Source: a phage. Taken from it: a stretch of 64,000 nt of DNA. The position numbers were made by a program, and so were the translations under genes. Below are positions 5,201-57,643 of the stretch, in pieces. The notes beneath the pieces were generated by a model. That model was not told where the DNA came from. It did not search any database and saw only the letters and a list, made by a program, of their open reading frames with translations. The DNA lies in the sequence record PZ534534.1; one strand, given 5' to 3'. Within the stretch, counting starts at the first letter, position 1, and each line of letters opens with the position of its first letter.

Positions 5201-7909
5201 CCTGAAACTTTAGGCAACGCTGTCGACCCCTATATCATCATGAGTGATCTAAGATCGAACATGGATGGAACATCCATATCTATGCAAGTTCCGGTAACAA
5301 ACGGATACAAGCGTGTTGTGATGATCATTAAGTGCGATCTGATAGGTAAGCAAGTTCTTGCAGAGAACGGAACTTCCACCCACCTATTTGAGACTGCTCT
5401 GCACTATCAGTTTGCTGATTCACCTTTTGCAGGGGATAAGAGAATATCTGACACAGACGCTGTGCGATGCAAGAAATTTATGCTAGGTGGTGGGTGGTGG
5501 TGGTATGAATTTGACTTAACAGACAAATTCACCGACACGTCTAAAGTAGTGACGGGGCTTCGTCTAGACCTTGGCGAAAACATGCACAAAAGTGTTTGTG
5601 ATGGCACCTACGGTGACCCAACAATCTACTTAAAGTATGTCTCTTTTGAGCACCCAGAGGATGTTGTTTATGGTCCAAAACTGAGACTGTTTGGCAATTG
5701 GATTGCTAAAGACAGGGTAGGTATGGGCAAGAAGGTAAGAGGCTTCTTAATAGATGCCGGTACAGAGGACATGCTAGTCAATGCAGTGTGGCCTGAATTA
5801 CCTGGGACTCAGTGGAACAACTCAGCCAAATCTATAAACTGGTTCAATATCCACAGGGCTATGTGGACAACCAACTGTTACCTGTGGAAAGAGCTGAATG
5901 ACGGCGCTTTCGGGTTCACAGGCGGCAGAAGAATGGCAATCATTTGCTGGACAACGTTGCAAAGATGTTATGACCATGACTACGAGATTGGAGGTAGGGC
6001 ATGGAAAAATATTAGGGATAGAATCATAACCAACTTTGCAGATCCTAACGGTGGTGGAGCGTATGGCTTCGACTGCAGCAGGCTCATCCATTTGAACGGA
6101 TCCTCTGCCTACAAGAAAGAAGGTTACTCTGGGTCTATGATAGAATGGGGCCTGGTGAAAGATGCTCGCGTGCTGATGGGTCAACAACTTGCTGCTGCAA
6201 TAGGTCCTAATGCAGTGCAATCTGTTAAACCTGCGTGGTTTGATATCCCATTGTGGTCATCCGGTACACCAGGAACTGCTGCAATCAACCCTACCACGGG
6301 GGATCTGGAAATCTCTTGGGAGGACTTGAAGCAGGTTGGAGGCTGGGATAAAACAGGGTATCAGGTCCAGTGGTGGAGGGCTGATGGATCTTTAGCCGCT
6401 GATGAGTTTGTTAAGGACAATTTCTACACCATGTCCTCTGCAAAAGCACAGGAATTGTTCGGTCAGGCAACTCCGTCAACGATCACCATGTCTATGTGCT
6501 GTAAAGACAACAGGACTGGAGCTTTGGGGCCAAGGGTTGCTAAAGTTTTCTCAGGTATTAAATGGAATCTACCTGTCCAAAGTATTTCATGGAAGCAAAT
6601 AGGTGATAACAAGCTGCTGGTTACCCCTGCCTGTCAGTTCAACGCAACTCTTAACGTTGATCCTGCTGTTGCGGCAAACTCAGCTAAAGCTTCTGACTTC
6701 TCTGTGTCTAACACTGCTATGGCAGATGTGAGGAAGATTGACACGCTGAACGCCAGAATTACCTGTAAAAACACTTATGGCACATTCCAAATCATCAACA
6801 ACTTCACAGATGCTGATTCTAAGGTAGTGAGGACAGCAAGCCAGACTCTGAGTTTAGGAACTCTGGCCTATGCGGCACTGATCACCGAACAGTCGGCAAC
6901 ACTCCAAGGAGGCGGTGTAGGCAAGTCCATTGCAACACCTGTGTGGAAGCCAAATGAGTGGGTTGTGTTTGATTTGACTGTGGACTTCTCCAGCGATAAT
7001 AACTGGACATGGGTAAGGAATTGTTTGTCACAGTTGATGGGCGGTCCAAGCTCCGTTAGTGATAGTCACGACTCTACTGACCCGAGTGTGTTCCAGGTAG
7101 GTAAAACTCACCCAGAGACTGGAGAAACGTTGCCTGACAGGAAGTATGCGTTGGTTTGCATCTCTTACGGGAAGGCAGATGTCACATTCTCAGGGACACA
7201 CACTTATAACGGAACTTACAACTTCTCAAGGAAGTATAGTCTCAAAGCAGGGAACATTATAGACGAGGTCGGTGTGCTGTATAATCCGGGCAACGGCATA
7301 GGGATTGTGGGCGGTAAACTGCAGATGCAGGAACCTTCTATCACCCCTTCCAACGTATCCGGGATTAGAAAGACTTGGGAAAGTAGTAATACCAACATTG
7401 CAACAGTGGATGCCACCACAGGGCTGGTAACATTTAAAGCTACTGGGAATGTCACCATAAAGTTTGTAGTTAGAGATGATGCAGGCCGCAAAACGTCTTC
7501 AACATCGTTTACTGTCAGACAGATGGCACCTCAGTGGTTTATTTGGGAAGGAAATCCTCTTGACGGGGCTTACCCTAGACCTGCAGGAACGTCCAATATG
7601 AGGGTCTTTACCGGTCCGGTCATGAACAATCCGACCACAACCACCAACCCTACATTTTTTGGTGCTTACATACCTGAAATTATTGGCCTACCAAGGAACC
7701 AGATACAACTGCTTTTCGGAGCAGGTGTTGATGGTCTAGCCACTTTTGGGTACAGTGACAACATTGATGCAGCCAGAAGCTCGGGTTGGATTGGATTTAA
7801 GTTTCAGTGGAACCCTGGTGGTAGAACATTAGGTGTTGCAAGCATAGGTGTTATGCTACCTGGTAACCAGCAATACCATCTCGAAGCTTATACAAACTTC
7901 CCTAGTTAA
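2282..7909 (+). CDS. giant tail fibre / host-recognition protein (1875 aa) with C-terminal bacterial Ig-like (BIG2-type) domain
   Basis: Single uninterrupted 5.6-kb ORF, GGAG RBS. C-terminal segment ...NVSGIRKTWESSNTNIATVDATTGLVTFKATGNVTIKFVVRDDAGRKTSSTSFTV matches the BIG2 Ig-like pattern (established family knowledge). N-terminal Gly/Asn repeats (LYGSGNNTYGSLHV) resemble RCC1-like propeller blades (weak). Tail-fibre role is inference. Confidence 0.6.
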   Translation: MLPIPLLKLGRHFLDKRGGIKELAVLSYPIDNSDGTSNTVSYVNSLAILFDDGQLNITGYNRFGECRTGDLDTINYPNEAAWNVDHVWRADRAFVIRTFDNKFFYIGCTAGLIGSEAAGGNDVCVREWTPLPEQIVTGLHLDTHPERLVEVMGGVNNTVWVIAAPEADGMLHLYGSGNNTYGSLHVDKSQHATPVKIGETSESPETGPWKNPRINCEVHDNSVIFGGPNGFWIAGYDFLRNNSRNDLVWPPVQITRNDLRGIPADEEWKGFMCGPNGAVIATQRMHRPDDQQLVNVFYGQNIWGDDTWRELNITYTHEVMMARGYGTSGIFFNNGTKQYRGFSRNLCNDIGAQSANNSPRADFIHYQALATAKYVEQRLPVSWTESVYFQGIHREGFLGTFTVVNGKLWWSGIPRGSFTGSNNLFGGRLNSQGFTEIPENWYKNVPVDSWGVEDIFDVNGVSSVSNIYIGDTVKMKLKPQPEGATFIIDKIELVNAAGTVVTDANYQFSTNWNHGGANEVVVTQYNRNVNRRGLYSVKITYHDKHGTGRTHTTRTLNWNTIVPAYPSDGKWHTVGRNKQFHVNDTVYFGLNGTQPAVEGDTSYMVRLHRMDAGSVTYDVTQEIYDQRRATYDNIVKTQALWEFNPNGKGGKMLQVNEQNGTSLTVHEHPDPWPDPGKPHPGARTLKIVSHDAGYFGIRWEATVRYVDGTTNNIGITLGGTSEDNSLKIAYTPRGISIDNMDVVRNGYGDVNVKVTLGEHLGGERIIMYAFDHDPRTNGTYANQAWSYLINAPEPNTKEFYYGMKRDVCKKTGTHDWIAICVKDERTAWDEPVNRWFIGIPTRSDKYVAEYIVCMGGTNLNMCWNEDVNKYSDYDYMRDYSCNLWFNQTTGYPPRQARVNPAIFTDTQVFLTKQANEVQTFKNKYDPNKWFYNCYGAFFWGPGELPGGGSCFEAATYASDRFMGQVKKYKIIPGPETLGNAVDPYIIMSDLRSNMDGTSISMQVPVTNGYKRVVMIIKCDLIGKQVLAENGTSTHLFETALHYQFADSPFAGDKRISDTDAVRCKKFMLGGGWWWYEFDLTDKFTDTSKVVTGLRLDLGENMHKSVCDGTYGDPTIYLKYVSFEHPEDVVYGPKLRLFGNWIAKDRVGMGKKVRGFLIDAGTEDMLVNAVWPELPGTQWNNSAKSINWFNIHRAMWTTNCYLWKELNDGAFGFTGGRRMAIICWTTLQRCYDHDYEIGGRAWKNIRDRIITNFADPNGGGAYGFDCSRLIHLNGSSAYKKEGYSGSMIEWGLVKDARVLMGQQLAAAIGPNAVQSVKPAWFDIPLWSSGTPGTAAINPTTGDLEISWEDLKQVGGWDKTGYQVQWWRADGSLAADEFVKDNFYTMSSAKAQELFGQATPSTITMSMCCKDNRTGALGPRVAKVFSGIKWNLPVQSISWKQIGDNKLLVTPACQFNATLNVDPAVAANSAKASDFSVSNTAMADVRKIDTLNARITCKNTYGTFQIINNFTDADSKVVRTASQTLSLGTLAYAALITEQSATLQGGGVGKSIATPVWKPNEWVVFDLTVDFSSDNNWTWVRNCLSQLMGGPSSVSDSHDSTDPSVFQVGKTHPETGETLPDRKYALVCISYGKADVTFSGTHTYNGTYNFSRKYSLKAGNIIDEVGVLYNPGNGIGIVGGKLQMQEPSITPSNVSGIRKTWESSNTNIATVDATTGLVTFKATGNVTIKFVVRDDAGRKTSSTSFTVRQMAPQWFIWEGNPLDGAYPRPAGTSNMRVFTGPVMNNPTTTTNPTFFGAYIPEIIGLPRNQIQLLFGAGVDGLATFGYSDNIDAARSSGWIGFKFQWNPGGRTLGVASIGVMLPGNQQYHLEAYTNFPS

Positions 7910-47811: not shown

Positions 47812-47901
47812 ATAAAGTGTTGCAATAACCTAAAAACCTGCTATATTAAAACTCAAGGGGGCAAGACGTTTGCCCCCACACAAAACAAAGAGGAAAACAT
47901 C

Positions 47902-52465: not shown

Positions 52466-52525
52466 TAAGATAATGACACGGGCCAAAAGGCCCACTAATC
52501 AGAACCACACAAAGGGAGAAAGAAA

Positions 52526-52744
52526 ATGACAACCCGTAAAATTAAAGTTGTTTGCATTGAATCGACTGGGGGCGCTTTTGTAGTTGGTCAGGAATATAAT
52601 GCGGTTTTAATGGGTACGGATTGGAAGGTTAAAGGCCTTAATGGTTACGAGTACGGCACTACTTGCGGCTTGCGTGGTCGAATCGGATACGTGAGTTTAG
52701 ACAATAAAGAAAAATTTGTTTTCGACACCCTTGTGAGTAAATAG
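52526..52744 (+). CDS. small early protein (72 aa)
   Basis: Leader hairpin GGGCCAAAAGGCCC + CACACAAAGGGAGAAAG RBS. Confidence 0.55.
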   Translation: MTTRKIKVVCIESTGGAFVVGQEYNAVLMGTDWKVKGLNGYEYGTTCGLRGRIGYVSLDNKEKFVFDTLVSK

Positions 52745-52822
52745 CATGAATTGCTAAAAACTGATCTGCGAACTGCTGTATTATCAACTAATCAAAACGA
52801 ACCACATAAAGAGGAAAACATC

Positions 52823-53086
52823 ATGAAACGTCTGGATCAGCTTAAATTAGTTCAGTACATGGCCTACAGAATTCTTGAAGTCCAAAAAGGTAGCAAAAAA
52901 GAGGTTTGCGAGAAAGCTTATAAGATCTTTACTCGCAAAAAAGATGACTGGATGCTACGCCAGACCAAAAAATCCGATATCCTGGGGTACCTGGAAGAAG
53001 AGATCCGGCTTGAAGAGCAAGAAGAGATCCGCCGTAGTGAGGCAGATTATCAGGCAGCTTGGGAAAACTGGATGAGCAACAAATAA
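52823..53086 (+). CDS. early protein (87 aa)
   Basis: ATG after CATAAAGAGGAAAACATC (track start 52751 upstream in same frame). Confidence 0.5.
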   Translation: MKRLDQLKLVQYMAYRILEVQKGSKKEVCEKAYKIFTRKKDDWMLRQTKKSDILGYLEEEIRLEEQEEIRRSEADYQAAWENWMSNK

Positions 53087-53152
53087 TACAACAAGTTACA
53101 TGGTCAGGGGCAATAAAGCCCCTTGATCACATAAAAATTATGCTATCCTTGG

Positions 53153-53181
53153 TTGACAGGGATCGGCAGTTTTGCTATATT
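53153..53181 (+). promoter_or_regulatory. sigma70-type promoter (TTGACA-17-TATATT)
   Basis: Read directly upstream of 53232 gene. Confidence 0.55.
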
Positions 53182-53231
53182 CTTTTTTGAAGGGAAGTTG
53201 TAAGAAAATTAACTGAGAGGTAAAAAACACC

Positions 53232-53651
53232 ATGAACATTAAATCTGATAATCCGGCATATAGCTTTGATAACGCTTTTTGTCACGGTCCGGCGGCGAAA
53301 GGATTCGAAATCGATGGTAAACTAATTATTGTCAATGTTGACGGGGAAGAGGTTGCAGTATATCCGGTGGCGGACGTTAAAAGCCGTCTACAATGCCGCA
53401 TGGATGTTACCGCCTATCAGCTTGATCCGGTCCGCATAGTTGCCCTGGTCCTGGAAGAAGAAATTAAAGCCATGCACCATAGCAACAGATTTATTGGTGA
53501 CGCGCAGGATAATATGAAAGTATGCCGCCATAAAGTTAATGAAGTGCTTAAAGAGTACGGTTATAAAGATCTTATGATCAAACGTGAGGAAAAATTCCGC
53601 TACCGTAACGACCTGGCAAATCGGATTTTTGAAATATACGAATCATTATAA
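53232..53651 (+). CDS. early protein (139 aa)
   Basis: GAGAGG RBS; last gene of plus-strand early block. Confidence 0.55.
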   Translation: MNIKSDNPAYSFDNAFCHGPAAKGFEIDGKLIIVNVDGEEVAVYPVADVKSRLQCRMDVTAYQLDPVRIVALVLEEEIKAMHHSNRFIGDAQDNMKVCRHKVNEVLKEYGYKDLMIKREEKFRYRNDLANRIFEIYESL

Positions 53652-53670
53652 TTTTTTAACTGAATTATCA

Positions 53671-53699
53671 AGGGGCTTAGGCCCCTTTCTTTTTGTCTG
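53671..53699 (+). terminator. rho-independent terminator
   Basis: AGGGGC-tta-GCCCCT hairpin followed by TTCTTTTTG. Confidence 0.7.
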
Positions 53700-56098
53700 C
53701 TCTTCTCCTACCATAAACGGCCCTACCTGGCAAGTGGAATAATTGACTAGCTATTAATCCCACACACTGTACAAATATACATGGAAAATAACTATTGCAT
53801 AATTTTTCATTGTGTGGTAGCAAGGCCATTTTTGCCCGTTTTCTCTCCCAAAATTGCACGTAATGCCGCTATTGCATAAATTTTAACCTGATGCATATCT
53901 TCAATATCTTGTCAACAAATAAAAATTCTTATAAGTCATACACTTACACAACATCGAAAGCGTGTCCTATGCGAAAAATCGAGTATAACTATAGCCGCCA
54001 GATTTCAGAATTTACGTACGCTCACCATTCTATAGCTTGCTAAGTATTTATTCCAACCATAGAATAACGGAATAGTCAATACCTGCATAAAATAATTATT
54101 CGTTTAAATTGCATAACATAAATCAGCTCAGGTGTCAACATTTTTCGTAAACAGTCCGAAATTGTCACGGCAAGTTATCATAAGCAGAGAAATCTTTAGT
54201 CGTCTAATGTTTACTGTACGTTACTATACTAACTGGAATCATTAGATGACTAACAGAAAGATAAGAAATAATTAATAATGTAATTGTTTTACCTGTAACA
54301 ATAAGGCAACTATGCAAACGAATGGCATGGCGCGACGGAGTCGCGACATAATATAAAAGCAGTAACCATCACCCCCGTGATAGTTTGTCTGCAAACTATT
54401 AATCAGATCATAGTTGCCTTGTATTTAGTTAATCATGACATAACAAGCAAGGCAACTATAGATCTGCTAATAGTTGCCCTGCTTTTATATTATGTCATAT
54501 ATTATTAACTTGTTAATTGTTAACTTGCTAATTGTTTTCATGCAAACGAATGTCATGGCTTATCATATCTGTGTAAACTGTCAAGGTGTAAACAGTCTAT
54601 GCGGGAACAATCTATACGTGAACAGTGAAACATGAAATAATAACAGTCGTTATTGTGCCATATTGTGTCCGGTGTGTCAGACAAGTTTTTCTCCTCTTTG
54701 TCAAGTGCTGCATGAAAAATTTACAAACTGGTATGGTAGCATTTTTGCGGCCCTGTTTACATTCAGCGATGTATGTATAATCCTTGTTGTGTGGGCGTTT
54801 AGACGTCTAGACGGTTGGAAGTCTGCAGGTCAATATCTAATCTATTGGCTGCTAACTATATCCCACACAAATAGTAAGAAATATGATTGTTATATGCGTA
54901 AACTGTAACTCATGTTATCAATCCCTGTATGTATCGCCAGTGGTGCGCATAATGGGTATTATGTTAAATTGCCCGTAATGATAACTATTCTCACAATGAT
55001 AGGTATTCTCATTCACCCCCACAAGATAGGTTGCAAATGTTGTGCCACTGTGTGAACGGCCTCACCTATTAATTTGCCTCACTGCCTCGATATTTGAGAA
55101 TTATTATAAGAATGAGAAGTATTCCCATTTCGTCCGCCTGGCAGCACTCCAGTCGCTACCGCTCATGACAGGGCAGAACTAGACCCTCTTCAGATATTTC
55201 TGGCTGACTCTTCAGGTCTGTGTGGGAAAAGCCAACCTCTCCGGCGGGGAAGGGGAGGTCAATTAAAAAATTTACGTGGTGTATGAAGCGCTCTTCAGGT
55301 AAGGCATGTGTTATGGGATGAAACCCTCTTCAGGCAATGATATTTGTGGGTGTGATATTTGCTGGAAAGCCAGATATGACGGGACTCCCGGCGGGGCAGG
55401 GGTAGTACAGACAAGGAAAATGTGGGGATGTGGTGGGAGTAAATTGATCAGACAGGTAGAGTATGGAATATGTTACAGGTATGTTAAATAGGGAGGCTGA
55501 ATATCTGTAAGATTTGTGTGTAAAATCAAAGACTTAAGTGGTGTTGTGGTATTTTCTATAAATAATTCAAGTTTAATAGGTAATATTTGTCTCTATCCGC
55601 CTTGTGTGGTAAACAGATTCAGATGAGATTGGTTTACAAGTGTATACATAATATACAAATTAAAGATACAAGAAACCCCCCTCCCCCTTCGGCTACCATT
55701 CACCTTTTCCTCTGACTGGTACTTAAACACTTATTCAGACTCTTCAGGTTATCACCCATATATCATATGGCAGTGACTGGTGTCCTCCGGCCACTCTTTC
55801 GTCACCCGTCCGCTTCGCCATGCTAATGCCATAGCCAATGGTTCGGTTGTTCACCCTGTTCACTCAGGTGTATCTCCATACCCCTTCAAACCGAAGAGAA
55901 CAGAAAACCCGAATTACTCGGTAAAAGAAAAGAGAAGAACTTAATTTTATCAGGATAGGCAAGAATGTCAAGGCATGACTGCTCACTAAACAAGCAAACA
56001 GTCATGTGTGGGAGGTAAGTGATTGTGGTGGTAGGAAATTTAGTTGAAAGATGTGTTATAGGTGCTTCCAGCACTTTAGCCGGGCAGCTAATTGTGTG
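53700..56098. other. 2.4-kb gene-free strand-switch region with nested palindromes and iterated motifs (candidate replication origin / regulatory hub)
   Basis: No convincing ORF on either strand; inverted repeats, direct repeats and six CTCTTCAGG copies read directly. Confidence 0.5.
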
Positions 56099-56395
56099 TC
56101 AGTCCAGCGGTTCATCCTCTACTTCACTGAAATCAATATTCATGGTCTCTTCCCAACCATCGATCTCAGCACAAGAGTGGAGTTCTTTAGGGTTTACTCC
56201 CAAAGCCTCAGCAACAGAGTCTATATTTAACACCTCTGGCAGGTATGATTCATCGAATTCAAGGTAAATCAGGCCACGAGTGTTGTCAGCCCCACCAAAT
56301 ATTTCTATCTTCATAAAATCTCCTCTGGGAATGAGAGTGTGAACAGGGTTTTATACGTTCCAATGCACAAGAATTATACACGTTTGCCTCTTCAG
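55186..56395 (+). repeat. six dispersed copies of CTCTTCAGG-type motif, all in same orientation
   Basis: Copies at about 55186, 55208, 55291, 55326, 55740, 56387, read directly. Confidence 0.5.
56099..56314 (-). CDS. small acidic protein (71 aa)
   Basis: GAGGAG RBS 6 nt upstream on minus strand. Confidence 0.5.
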   Translation of the reverse strand: MKIEIFGGADNTRGLIYLEFDESYLPEVLNIDSVAEALGVNPKELHSCAEIDGWEETMNIDFSEVEDEPLD

Positions 56396-56435
56396 GCCAT
56401 GCTTTAGCATGAGGAACCTGTGTGGGCTCGGTGCT

Positions 56436-56648
56436 TCATAGTCTACCACCTCTGAACTCTTCGTGCTCAGGCATAATAGAGAACCAGATATCTACGATGT
56501 CCTCCCACGTCAGGTCATCAGCCTCAGGATCTGTCTGGGACGAAGATGAAGAGTCCTCAGAATCTAAGTTTTCCTCTTTAACTGGCTCATCCAAGGGACA
56601 TATGGTCACTCCTTCGGATGTCTCTTCAGATGCATGTGTGTTGATCAT
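56436..56648 (-). CDS. small acidic Ser/Glu/Asp-rich protein (70 aa)
   Basis: ORF with GGGTGGA RBS. Confidence 0.45.
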   Translation of the reverse strand: MINTHASEETSEGVTICPLDEPVKEENLDSEDSSSSSQTDPEADDLTWEDIVDIWFSIMPEHEEFRGGRL

Positions 56649-57008
56649 GTTCCACCCGTGAGTATTCCGGCAACAGCCGCTATGGACGTAATGATCATCA
56701 GGATCACCACTAAAACTTCGGACAATGTTCTCATTGTGTACTCCATATTCTACAAACTATGTGTGGATACTATCACTGGATCGGTAATGTGTCAACAGAA
56801 ACGCCGCGAGGGTTTGGTTAAAATCCGAGCGTATGGTGATTTGGGTCAAAACGGACGTGCGTTCTCGCTACGCTCGAAAGAGAGATTTGTTTGTAGGAAG
56901 CTCTTAAACGCTCTGTAACGAGATTATCTGTCCAAGGTATGCAATCGTGCACCAGATAAAGAAAAGGACGCCACAGAGCGTCCTAGGTGTCTTAAATTTG
57001 ATATTTTG

Positions 57009-57320
57009 CTATACCCATGAGGGCTTATCAAGGTTGGAGTAGCTGAAAGGTGTCAAAAGGTGACTGTCAAAATCTCTCAAACTATCCAAATCTTTTTCCT
57101 CGTCCTGACACCATCTGTGCCTACATTTATTGTTGTAGTGCATAGAATGCATAGCGTTCTGCAACTTAACAGGCACAAGTGATTCAGGAGTAGATAGTAT
57201 TGTTGGGTATGCCAGAACCACCTCAAACAGTGGAAACACATCGAAACTAAAGTCTACCTCTGCAGAGGTTGATGGCATGTAAGAGTATTTAGCCGCCTTT
57301 GTAGACATAATCCACCTCAC
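57009..57320 (-). CDS. hypothetical protein (103 aa)
   Basis: ORF overlapping upstream gene by 4 nt. Confidence 0.5.
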   Translation of the reverse strand: MRWIMSTKAAKYSYMPSTSAEVDFSFDVFPLFEVVLAYPTILSTPESLVPVKLQNAMHSMHYNNKCRHRWCQDEEKDLDSLRDFDSHLLTPFSYSNLDKPSWV

Positions 57321-57643
57321 ACAGGTTTGATAATACCTTTACCGAATAACTCTTCGTATCTAATCTTATCCGGATCCCACTCCTGGATAATTTCGAAGAC
57401 AATATCCAACCCTGGGATAATCACTTCTCCAGTGTCGAGCTTAGCAAGAACAAAACCGGAGGGTTGAATGGTTTCCCAGTTGCGCCGATTGGAATAGAAG
57501 ACCTCGAAAATATCGCCGACCTTTATCTGTTGATCAAGATGTTCAAGATTCTCTTTCATATAGACGCAGCGGATTTTTCGTGCAGGCCATAGACCACCTG
57601 CATCACGTTCATTCAATTCTTTTACAGTGATAGGTATACCCAT
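57317..57643 (-). CDS. hypothetical protein (108 aa)
   Basis: ORF in array. Confidence 0.5.
   Translation of the reverse strand: MGIPITVKELNERDAGGLWPARKIRCVYMKENLEHLDQQIKVGDIFEVFYSNRRNWETIQPSGFVLAKLDTGEVIIPGLDIVFEIIQEWDPDKIRYEELFGKGIIKPV

Follow-up and report, generated by a model that had tools for sequence, protein, structure and literature searches.

A conserved DNA fold-back and a predicted terminal repeat in the gene-free gap of rV5-like coliphages: a probable concatemer junction

Terminal repeat and predicted chromosome ends

The DNA analyzed here is a 64,000-nt stretch of a phage genome (sequence record PZ534534.1; hereafter the window). It contains a gap without a credible gene, at 53652–56098, which, together with its flanks, is 93–95% identical to many Vequintavirus (rV5-like) coliphages (e.g., AlexBoehm, naswa, rV5, and Murica); sequence identity places the phage in this genus. 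The gap very probably represents a concatemer junction with fixed, short direct terminal repeats, at which a fold-back module and the repeat array beside it would provide the cis signal for end formation. Repeat mapping in relatives and conservation boundaries both indicate that the gap is such a junction, composed of arm A, one repeat copy, and arm B. The order along the window would accordingly be + strand genes, arm A (53652–54679), terminal repeat (54680–55138), arm B (55139–56098), and − strand genes.

Several deposited genomes of relatives start or stop within the gap. For example, repeat regions are annotated in Gotham (MT682716.1) at 1–459 and 136567–137025, which we verified to be an exact 459-bp repeat, and this repeat maps gaplessly to window positions 54680–55138 (also 459 bp; 438 of 460 aligned columns identical). 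The record of bov10K2 starts exactly at window position 55138, and those of ECP2303 and YN3 end exactly at 54680, all three being from other laboratories. The window sequence itself contains a single copy of the repeat (collapsed or permuted). Together, homology to mapped relatives and conservation establish the predicted position and length of the repeat, and the following features were delineated:

54680–55138, unstranded: direct terminal repeat of 459 bp, beginning GACAAG...TTGTCAAG...ATTTACAAA, with an 18-nt tandem repeat at 54977–55011
54675–54683, unstranded: inner repeat boundary (54679/54680), at the center of the mini-palindrome TGTC-A-GACA; coincides with a jump in conservation and with the ends of the Gotham and ECP2303 records
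55139–55190, unstranded: variable, indel-rich segment directly outside the outer repeat boundary, from the alignment of relatives

In an alignment of the gap from 16 vequintaviruses, the terminal repeat forms a conserved island (identity 0.91–0.99), and the DNA just outside it is variable and rich in indels (0.48–0.77 on the left, 0.65 on the right). Identity leaps from 0.69 to 0.99 exactly at 54680. The original prediction had proposed that the region is a replication origin or a packaging or regulatory hub. Its packaging component is upheld, as the 459-bp repeat of a relative maps to the middle of the region and conservation independently marks the same boundaries.

Terminal repeats have also been described in virion DNA of related phages. 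Gotham virion DNA was reported to carry 459-bp terminal repeats, with one specific packaging start in all virions (PMC7471380), and the vequintaviruses EdH4 and HdK5 were found by Korf et al. to have 458-bp terminal redundancies (PMC6563267). In Klebsiella phage KPP-1, a member of the same subfamily, a 514-bp repeat was identified by twofold coverage and PhageTerm and was classed as T7-type (PMC9862379). The mapped start of the KPP-1 repeat (reverse complement AACACAATTCTCTCTCCTTGTCAAGC...ATTTACAAA) is homologous, to within 1–2 nt, to that of the window (GACAAGTTTTTCTCCTCTTTGTCAAGTGC...ATTTACAAA). A pair of TTGTCAAG and ATTTACAAA occurs 200–420 nt past the fold-back module in 8 of 13 lineages, and starts 18–20 nt inside mapped repeats. 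Mt1B1_P17 (Phapecoctavirus) has an exact 328-bp terminal repeat. Identical sequence at both ends, as expected of T7-type virion DNA, is found in close relatives (Gotham and Mt1B1_P17) rather than in this phage itself. The repeat is situated in DNA without genes and has short-repeat arrays on its flanks.

Two records show irregularities at these positions. Phage I29 (ON286975.1; 2533–3100) carries a tandem duplication of the equivalent of window 54922–55465, plus a short inverted piece, and this duplication across the outer repeat boundary may be either an assembly artifact at chromosome ends or a real rearrangement. In ECO340P2 (OP172792.1), the two record ends share exactly 55 nt, and the break lies ~25 nt or less from the phapecoctavirus repeat boundary. 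The shared stretch has the appearance of an assembler k-mer overlap, which suggests a tendency of assemblies to break at such termini.

A fold-back module inboard of the repeat

A fold-back module in arm A lies 183 nt inboard of the terminal repeat and is abutted by a conserved box:

54345–54496, unstranded: fold-back module with an outer 18-bp perfect stem, a small hairpin, and a long inner hairpin, delineated by single-stranded DNA (ssDNA) folding and compensatory change
54329–54345, + strand: GGCGCGAC box with the small GC palindrome CGCGAC-GGA-GTCGCG (54331–54345), a conserved motif abutting the left arm

The outer stem is formed by an 18-nt perfect inverted repeat, GACATAATATAAAAGCAG / CTGCTTTTATATTATGTC (54345–54362 / 54479–54496), inside of which lie a small hairpin with a C-rich loop (54366–54386) and a 12-nt perfect inverted repeat, ATAGTTGCCTTG / CAAGGCAACTAT (54410–54421 / 54448–54459). 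The long inner hairpin is built of AGGCAACTAT sites (54410 on the − strand, 54450 on the + strand, and 54470 on the − strand), a fourth copy of which (54304, + strand) lies outside the stem. As ssDNA, positions 54340–54500 fold with a predicted energy of −41.7 kcal/mol (z −11.5).

All repeats listed in the original prediction are present, each at most 1 nt from its predicted position, and they are clustered beyond chance. The window has only three perfect inverted repeats with arms of 12 nt or more and a spacer of up to 150, and all of them are located at 54303–54496. The 18-nt arm is longer than the longest arm in 60 simulated windows (16 nt), and no arm of 18 nt or more arose in 2000 simulations with local composition. 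In addition, the block at 54296–54498 is the most conserved part of arm A (identity 0.96–1.00, with sharp edges, compared with 0.82 for the adjacent protein-coding gene). The module is invariant in 16 vequintaviruses, and rV5 has accommodated a 33-nt insertion in an inner loop.

Conservation of the fold-back across lineages

A blastn comparison of the gap with distant genera yielded no alignable similarity outside the rV5 group, and distant comparisons were therefore made by position and motifs. A long inverted repeat is present at the same relative position in every related lineage examined, including the following:

Window (Vequintavirus): perfect 18-nt arm, 116-nt spacer, ssDNA z −11.5, 183 nt to the mapped repeat
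L011 (IMG/VR contig): perfect 17-nt arm, 82-nt spacer, ssDNA z −10.4
Septuagintavirus A73 and LTH01: 21-nt arm (90%), 63–72-nt spacer, ssDNA z −5.7
KPP-1 (Mydovirus): perfect 21-nt arm, 164-nt spacer, ssDNA z −11.1, 308 nt to the mapped repeat
Phapecoctavirus (unrelated arm sequence): 15–24-nt arm, 97–98-nt spacer, z −6.9, 213 nt from the 328-bp repeat of Mt1B1_P17

The motif GGCGCGA(C/G)-N-AG-N-GCGACAYWATAA is kept in Vequintavirus, L011, Septuagintavirus, and Mydovirus; the arm begins with GCGACAYWATAA and is preceded by the GGCGCGAC box. Scanning IMG/VR with this box-arm motif recovered 10 further contigs (83–148 kb) and was more productive than a protein-anchored search, which found three loci only. 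Nine of the 10 contigs have a perfect partner arm of 16–21 nt located 82–188 nt away, and for the tenth, the fetched stretch ends before the partner arm region is complete. Such repeats are expected by chance about 4e-4 times or fewer per 2 kb, and the presence of a partner arm in every lineage is improbable by chance.

Covariation was assessed in a set of nine distinct lineages with an 18-pair stem. Overall, 98.8% of cells are paired, although partner arms were found using a 12-nt complementary seed, so that pairs 1–12 are paired by construction. Pairs 13–18, which are free of this constraint, covary too. Eleven of the 18 pairs have been altered on both sides, and no one-sided changes were found. 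Double-sided changes affect 25 cells, compared with 6.2 ± 2.1 in shuffles (0 of 500 shuffles reached 25), and when partners were slid by 1–3 columns, only 28–57% of cells paired. The stems contain no wobble pairs of the G.U/G.T type (0 in 162 cells), which argues for a constraint on DNA rather than RNA. These results show that a predicted DNA fold-back has been strongly constrained ~180–310 nt inboard of the repeat throughout the subfamily. A foldable inverted repeat a few hundred nt inboard of one repeat copy is the arrangement that hairpin-assisted duplication of the T7 style would entail.

In two phapecoctaviruses (L014 and L015; 5421–6975), the order is flanking gene, palindrome, ~200 nt, and terminal repeat, and the genes past the gap are co-directional. 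The strand switch is thus not essential to the arrangement.

Spacer between the module and the terminal repeat

The fold-back is bracketed by direct repeats, and the DNA between it and the repeat boundary consists largely of tandem repeats of variable copy number:

54312–54331, + strand: left copy of the 20-nt direct repeat ATGCAAACGAATGnCATGGC bracketing the fold-back
54540–54559, + strand: right copy of the bracketing repeat, 19/20 identical to the left copy
54501–54536, unstranded: AT-rich 15-nt tandem repeat (2.4 copies; G+C content 0.19 over 54498–54540), varying in copy number between phages
54566–54679, + strand: hypervariable array of ~15–16-nt GTGTAAAC(A/T)GTC-type repeats, which number from 2 to ~7 depending on the phage and extend to the predicted cut site

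L011 has such a bracketing repeat as well (GCAACGATAACATGGCGC at 7100 and ~7345). In most relatives, there is one copy fewer of the AT-rich repeat and an 11–48-nt insertion after 54498, which is lacking in the window and in ECP2303. The long form of this insertion (AGAAACACCCGAAGGGGTGACC..GGTCACC) contains two GC-rich hairpins and resembles a − strand terminator. The GTGTAAAC-GTC sequences, described as iterons in the original prediction, do constitute an array with a 15-nt period (Tandem Repeats Finder), with units in the window at 54571 (GTGTAAACTGTC), 54586 (GTGTAAACAGTC), and 54617 (CGTGAACAGTG). An identical 15-mer, GTGTAAACTGTCAAG, is found in the equivalent spacer of KPP-1 and other genera.

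Flanking genes and the remainder of the gap

The elements bordering the module-repeat region in arm A, and the genes on either side of the gap, are as follows:

53232–53651, + strand: last + strand gene, a 139-aa open reading frame (ORF)
53670–53697, + strand: intrinsic terminator of this gene, a GC-rich stem of 7 bp, AAGGGGCTTAGGCCCCTT, with TCTTTTTGT after it; the Murica and Gotham records also annotate a terminator here
53698–54295, unstranded: distal arm A, moderately conserved (0.86–0.97), with a 13-nt imperfect inverted repeat at 54198–54252
56099–56314, − strand: first − strand gene (71 aa; stop codon at 56099), belonging to a PHROG of unknown function and orthologous to bas54_0135

As the flanking + and − strand transcription units converge on the gap (the former ends at 53651 and the stop codon of the latter is at 56099), it is not a divergent promoter region, and the earlier description of it as an oversized version of one must be abandoned. 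The absence of a credible ORF between the flanking genes was confirmed. ORFs of at least 39 aa in the gap show no third-codon-position bias and most are broken in relatives, whereas a real flanking gene, used as a control, has such a bias (6, 5, and 18 variable columns at the three positions). Annotators have called anywhere from 0 to 14 ORFs in the gap, including a "membrane protein" and other hypothetical coding sequences in some records, which we rejected on the same grounds. Pfam and PHROG searches with five flanking proteins matched families of unknown function only, and hence offered no candidate DNA-binding partner. ARAGORN found no tRNA or tmRNA.

The stem in distal arm A (TAGTCGTCTAATG / CATTAGATGACTA at 54198–54210 / 54240–54252) has one G.T mismatch and a predicted ssDNA fold of −10.3 kcal/mol (z −4.0). 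Its arms are invariant among relatives and its loop is variable.

Roughly 20 GenBank records of "Campylobacter phage" (MG0656xx, with hosts given as C. jejuni) are 88–93% identical over the full region. From their sequences, these look like rV5-like coliphages that were mislabelled or co-isolated.

Arm B (55139–56098) contains repeats of another kind, an invariant block, and a conserved non-coding unit:

55186–55403, + strand: arm B repeat units, CTCTTCAGG - TGTG(T)GGG - GAAAGCCA - CCGGCGGGGnAGGGG, in two copies, plus extra copies of CTCTTCAG
55520–55580, unstranded: invariant block holding the only integration host factor (IHF) consensus of the region (55524–55536)
55670–55975, − strand: near-invariant non-coding unit of ~300 nt, in which a promoter is followed by a hairpin with a U tract, by conserved blocks, and by an end rich in G

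The CTCTTCAG copies are linked with TGTGTGG and G-rich tracts, and L011 retains a same-strand CTCTTCAG cluster. Seven of the 12 copies in the window lie at 55186–56629, all on the + strand, and only 2.1 copies would be expected for the entire window. On the − strand, the element reads CTGAAGAG and usually has CCCACACA 3–25 nt before it. Two copies are located just upstream of − strand genes, at 56388 before a TGTATAAT promoter and at 56622, 8 nt before a ribosome-binding site. We considered CTCTTCAG / CCCACACA as a promoter class, but dropped it because the contexts were inconsistent. TGTGTGG / CCACACA occurs 34 times across the window compared with 9.7 expected (e.g., at 47876, 52162, 52505, and 56760). 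On the coding strand, CCACACA is often found in 5′ leaders 8–25 nt upstream of ribosome-binding sites, or right after the −10 element, and the motif may be a CA-rich leader or start-site motif. The sole IHF consensus (AATCAAAGACTTA) and the sole DnaA-box-like match of the gap overlap at 55517–55536, in a 100% conserved block. An IHF scan showed no enrichment.

The promoter of the ~300-nt unit is a predicted sigma-70 promoter with an extended −10 (TTGACA-16-TGaTAAAAT, 55971 to 55944), and the hairpin and U tract (55921–55899) lie ~20 nt downstream. In L011 (9600–9900), the extended −10 is kept, as is the hairpin, via compensatory changes (CCGAG..TTCGG versus CCAGAA..TTCTGG). Beyond the hairpin are the conserved blocks CTGAGTGAACAGnGTGAACA, CCTGAAGAG, and GTTTAAGTACCAG, and then the G-rich end. 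The unit has no conserved ORF and no Rfam match, and the z-score of its RNA fold is only −1.67. It could give rise to a transcript, attenuated or small, that runs towards the chromosome end.

Alternative explanations

The main rival reading is that the palindrome module and AT-rich tandem repeat are a replication origin, with an initiator binding the repeated sites and the AT-rich 15-mers (54498–54540) unwinding. Origins of the lambda type combine iterons, an AT-rich tract, and a palindrome, and T7 has a secondary origin near its right end; an origin here need not exclude a terminal function, as the two could coexist. Several features would fit. The G+C content of the window is lowest at 54001–55000 (0.354) and falls to 0.19 in the AT-rich repeat, which adjoins both the palindrome and repeated sites present in both orientations (four AGGCAACTAT sites and the bracketing direct repeats). 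Moreover, the module is under strong sequence constraint, and the orthologous gap of phage Bas54 is intolerant of transposon insertions. Nonetheless, the gap has no cluster of DnaA boxes (one match, with three in the window versus 8.6 expected), and the turn in cumulative GC skew at the gap is no different from that seen wherever gene orientation changes, i.e., the skew tracks transcription. The authors of the rV5 genome likewise sought an origin by skew without finding one and drew the same conclusion on skew and transcription (PMC3606486). The AT-rich repeat is also among the least conserved segments and varies in copy number, no initiator gene is identifiable alongside by Pfam or PHROG searches of the flanking proteins, and the distance from element to repeat is fixed in lineages of unrelated sequence, which is not an origin requirement. 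These observations weaken the origin reading, which we regard as rather unlikely, and leave that part of the original prediction unsupported, including by the skew analysis it had suggested, even though an AT-rich repeat adjoins the palindrome.

Structured non-coding RNAs are a less probable explanation, and we doubt that they account for the region. They would comprise a small RNA from the palindrome (− strand, ~54482 to 54355) and/or an RNA of ~270 nt from the − strand promoter at 55971. The former could use a − strand promoter predicted at 54516 to 54489 and a hairpin resembling a terminator (54385–54364), but most relatives have an 11–48-nt insertion between the −35 and −10 of this promoter. 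We consequently rejected the palindrome small RNA as a conserved feature, and the lack of promoter conservation makes an RNA explanation weak for arm A. The latter has the strong arm B promoter, with an extended −10 and downstream hairpin conserved in L011 by compensatory changes and no conserved ORF; however, its fold is unremarkable by z-score, and although it may be a real transcript, it leaves the palindromes unexplained. Furthermore, the absence of G.U-type pairs from the stems is atypical of RNA helices, and an Rfam 15 scan of 52500–57500, a check that had been suggested for the region, returned zero covariance-model matches at E ≤ 1.

A T5-like injection-stop signal, halting DNA entry after the first chromosome segment, is highly improbable. 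The stop region of T5 is near its terminal repeat and is rich in repeats, inverted repeats, palindromes, and DnaA boxes, and vequintaviruses share a T5-like sensitivity to DNA intercalators (PMC13250531). However, no pre-early genes separate the cluster from either chromosome end (no credible ORF from the repeat to the palindrome, or in arm B), such that first-step transfer would deliver nothing to express; DnaA boxes are lacking, and the terminal repeat is 459 bp rather than about 10 kb. Equally improbable is a miniature mobile element remnant, or a bidirectional terminator or insulator between the converging units: inverted arms around 63–188 nt do resemble a miniature inverted-repeat element, and bidirectional terminators were expected here by the rV5 authors (PMC3606486), but the element is single-copy in the window, has no target-site duplication, and keeps a fixed position beside the conserved GGCGCGAC box in many genera, while the + strand unit already has its own terminator ~650 nt upstream and phapecoctaviruses retain the element despite co-directional downstream genes.

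Proposed role in end formation

Duplication of the repeat is a step required of every short-repeat phage. In the arrangement that we favor, a concatemer junction with fixed ends, terminase would cut replicated concatemers at 54679/54680 to form one end and at 55138/55139 to form the other, and the repeat would be duplicated during packaging, so that each virion carries it at both ends. The most likely role of the module and adjacent array is that of the cis signal for end formation, through terminase recognition and/or a hairpin that aids repeat duplication. This signal would comprise the GGCGCGAC box, the 16–21-bp perfect outer stem, the inner hairpins, and the adjacent GTGTAAAC-GTC repeats. 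The module may be the site recognized by terminase. Alternatively, a hairpin or cruciform in replicating DNA may prime or guide duplication of the repeat, as has been proposed for the hairpin intermediate in T7 concatemer processing (PMC4281155).

We tentatively raise a more specific possibility, namely that the fold-back is a self-pairing element defined by structure, forming a hairpin or cruciform in concatemers that primes or templates repeat duplication, and perhaps doubling as a terminase target. The primary reference on the T7 hairpin intermediate is Chung, Nardone and Hinkle (1990), as listed in PMC4925675. If the possibility holds, copying of one arm from the other would account, as a by-product, for the perfect homogenization of the arms in every lineage, and the hairpin model of repeat duplication would gain its first case outside T7 with phylogenetic support at the sequence level. 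The possibility would also explain why the gap of Bas54 is refractory to transposon insertion. In a saturated transposon library of this phage, no insertion was recovered in an intergenic region of ~2 kb, which was flagged as functionally important and left unexplained (2025 preprint). Bas54 is MaxBurger, the genes bordering its insertion-free region are orthologues of the window flanking genes, and its gap measures 2512 nt, contains 224 TA target sites, and shares 94% identity with the window. The absence of insertions at all of these sites counts in favor of the arrangement proposed here.

Several observations weigh against a terminal repeat with a fold-back cis signal. A vequintavirus genome derived from a phage cocktail was called "headful (PAC)" by PhageTerm (PMC13211470), a call to which we give lower weight, and the predicted window termini are transferred from relatives that are ~94–95% identical. 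The perfect inverted arms could instead reflect paired protein-binding sites; a third copy resembling the arms occurs in L011 and L033, and nesting does not extend to all four AGGCAACTAT sites. The insertion-free signal of Bas54 might be partly technical (whether the selection marker had its own promoter is not stated in the preprint text searched), and several sites in the gap accommodate natural indels of up to ~80 nt. Lastly, we examined the T7 right end for a comparable palindrome and found weak, imperfect inverted repeats of 10–12 nt only, which makes the T7 analogy loose.

Relation to previous work and implications

The identity of the region is not new, as earlier publications cover each of its features: the gap without coding sequence, the short terminal repeats, and the lack of transposon insertions. 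The "non-coding" box in the rV5 gap (2013), the 458–459-bp repeats (2019–2020), and the insertion-free region of ~2 kb (2025 preprint) are the same place, previously unconnected. The link among these three observations appears to be undescribed in the literature searched, as does the fold-back module with its box, bracketing repeats, and variable array. What is gained is a base-level map of predicted cut sites, repeat, variable arrays, and a fold-back conserved with full compensatory change across the subfamily. In practical terms, genomes of this widely used group of therapeutic coliphages could be correctly oriented and annotated, and a defined fragment becomes available for testing as a packaging signal for transduction or engineering. 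How short terminal repeats come to be duplicated in packaging is an unsettled question, for which the region offers a tractable system.

Comparison with known systems

The region shares with lambda-type origins the repeated sites in both orientations beside an AT-rich tandem repeat and a palindrome, but it is neither inside nor beside an initiator gene, conservation of its AT-rich part is poor, and its location is linked to that of the repeat. Like the T5 injection-stop region, it contains no genes, lies near a terminal repeat, and is dense in repeats and palindromes, although it lacks pre-early genes between end and signal and DnaA boxes, and its repeat is more than 20 times shorter.

The cos site of lambda consists of a nicking site, cosN, and cosB, which holds repeated terminase-binding R sites and an IHF site. 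Similarly, a cut site with small dyad symmetry (TGTC-A-GACA) is found here beside an array of short elements that could bind small terminase, and one IHF consensus is present in an invariant block. However, the ends here would be blunt-type direct repeats made by two cuts 459 bp apart, as opposed to the 12-nt cohesive ends of lambda, and the repeats are hypervariable in number.

T7 differs in having a shorter repeat (160 bp, compared with 459 bp here), and the phage studied here would be a 137-kb myovirus without a phage RNA polymerase, for which reason the T7 polymerase pause-site mechanism is inapplicable. In addition, the fold-back is far bigger and stronger than its T7 counterparts (16–21-bp perfect stem, about −42 kcal/mol), and the flanking genes are transcribed towards the junction from both sides. 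The likeness to T7 nevertheless extends to several levels: the terminal repeat is short, exact, non-coding, and fixed at its ends; degenerate short repeats are arrayed just inboard of it (in T7, of the right terminal repeat); an inverted repeat lies inboard of one repeat copy; and rV5 has T7-like replication genes (Pol A and a gp4-type primase-helicase; PMC3606486).

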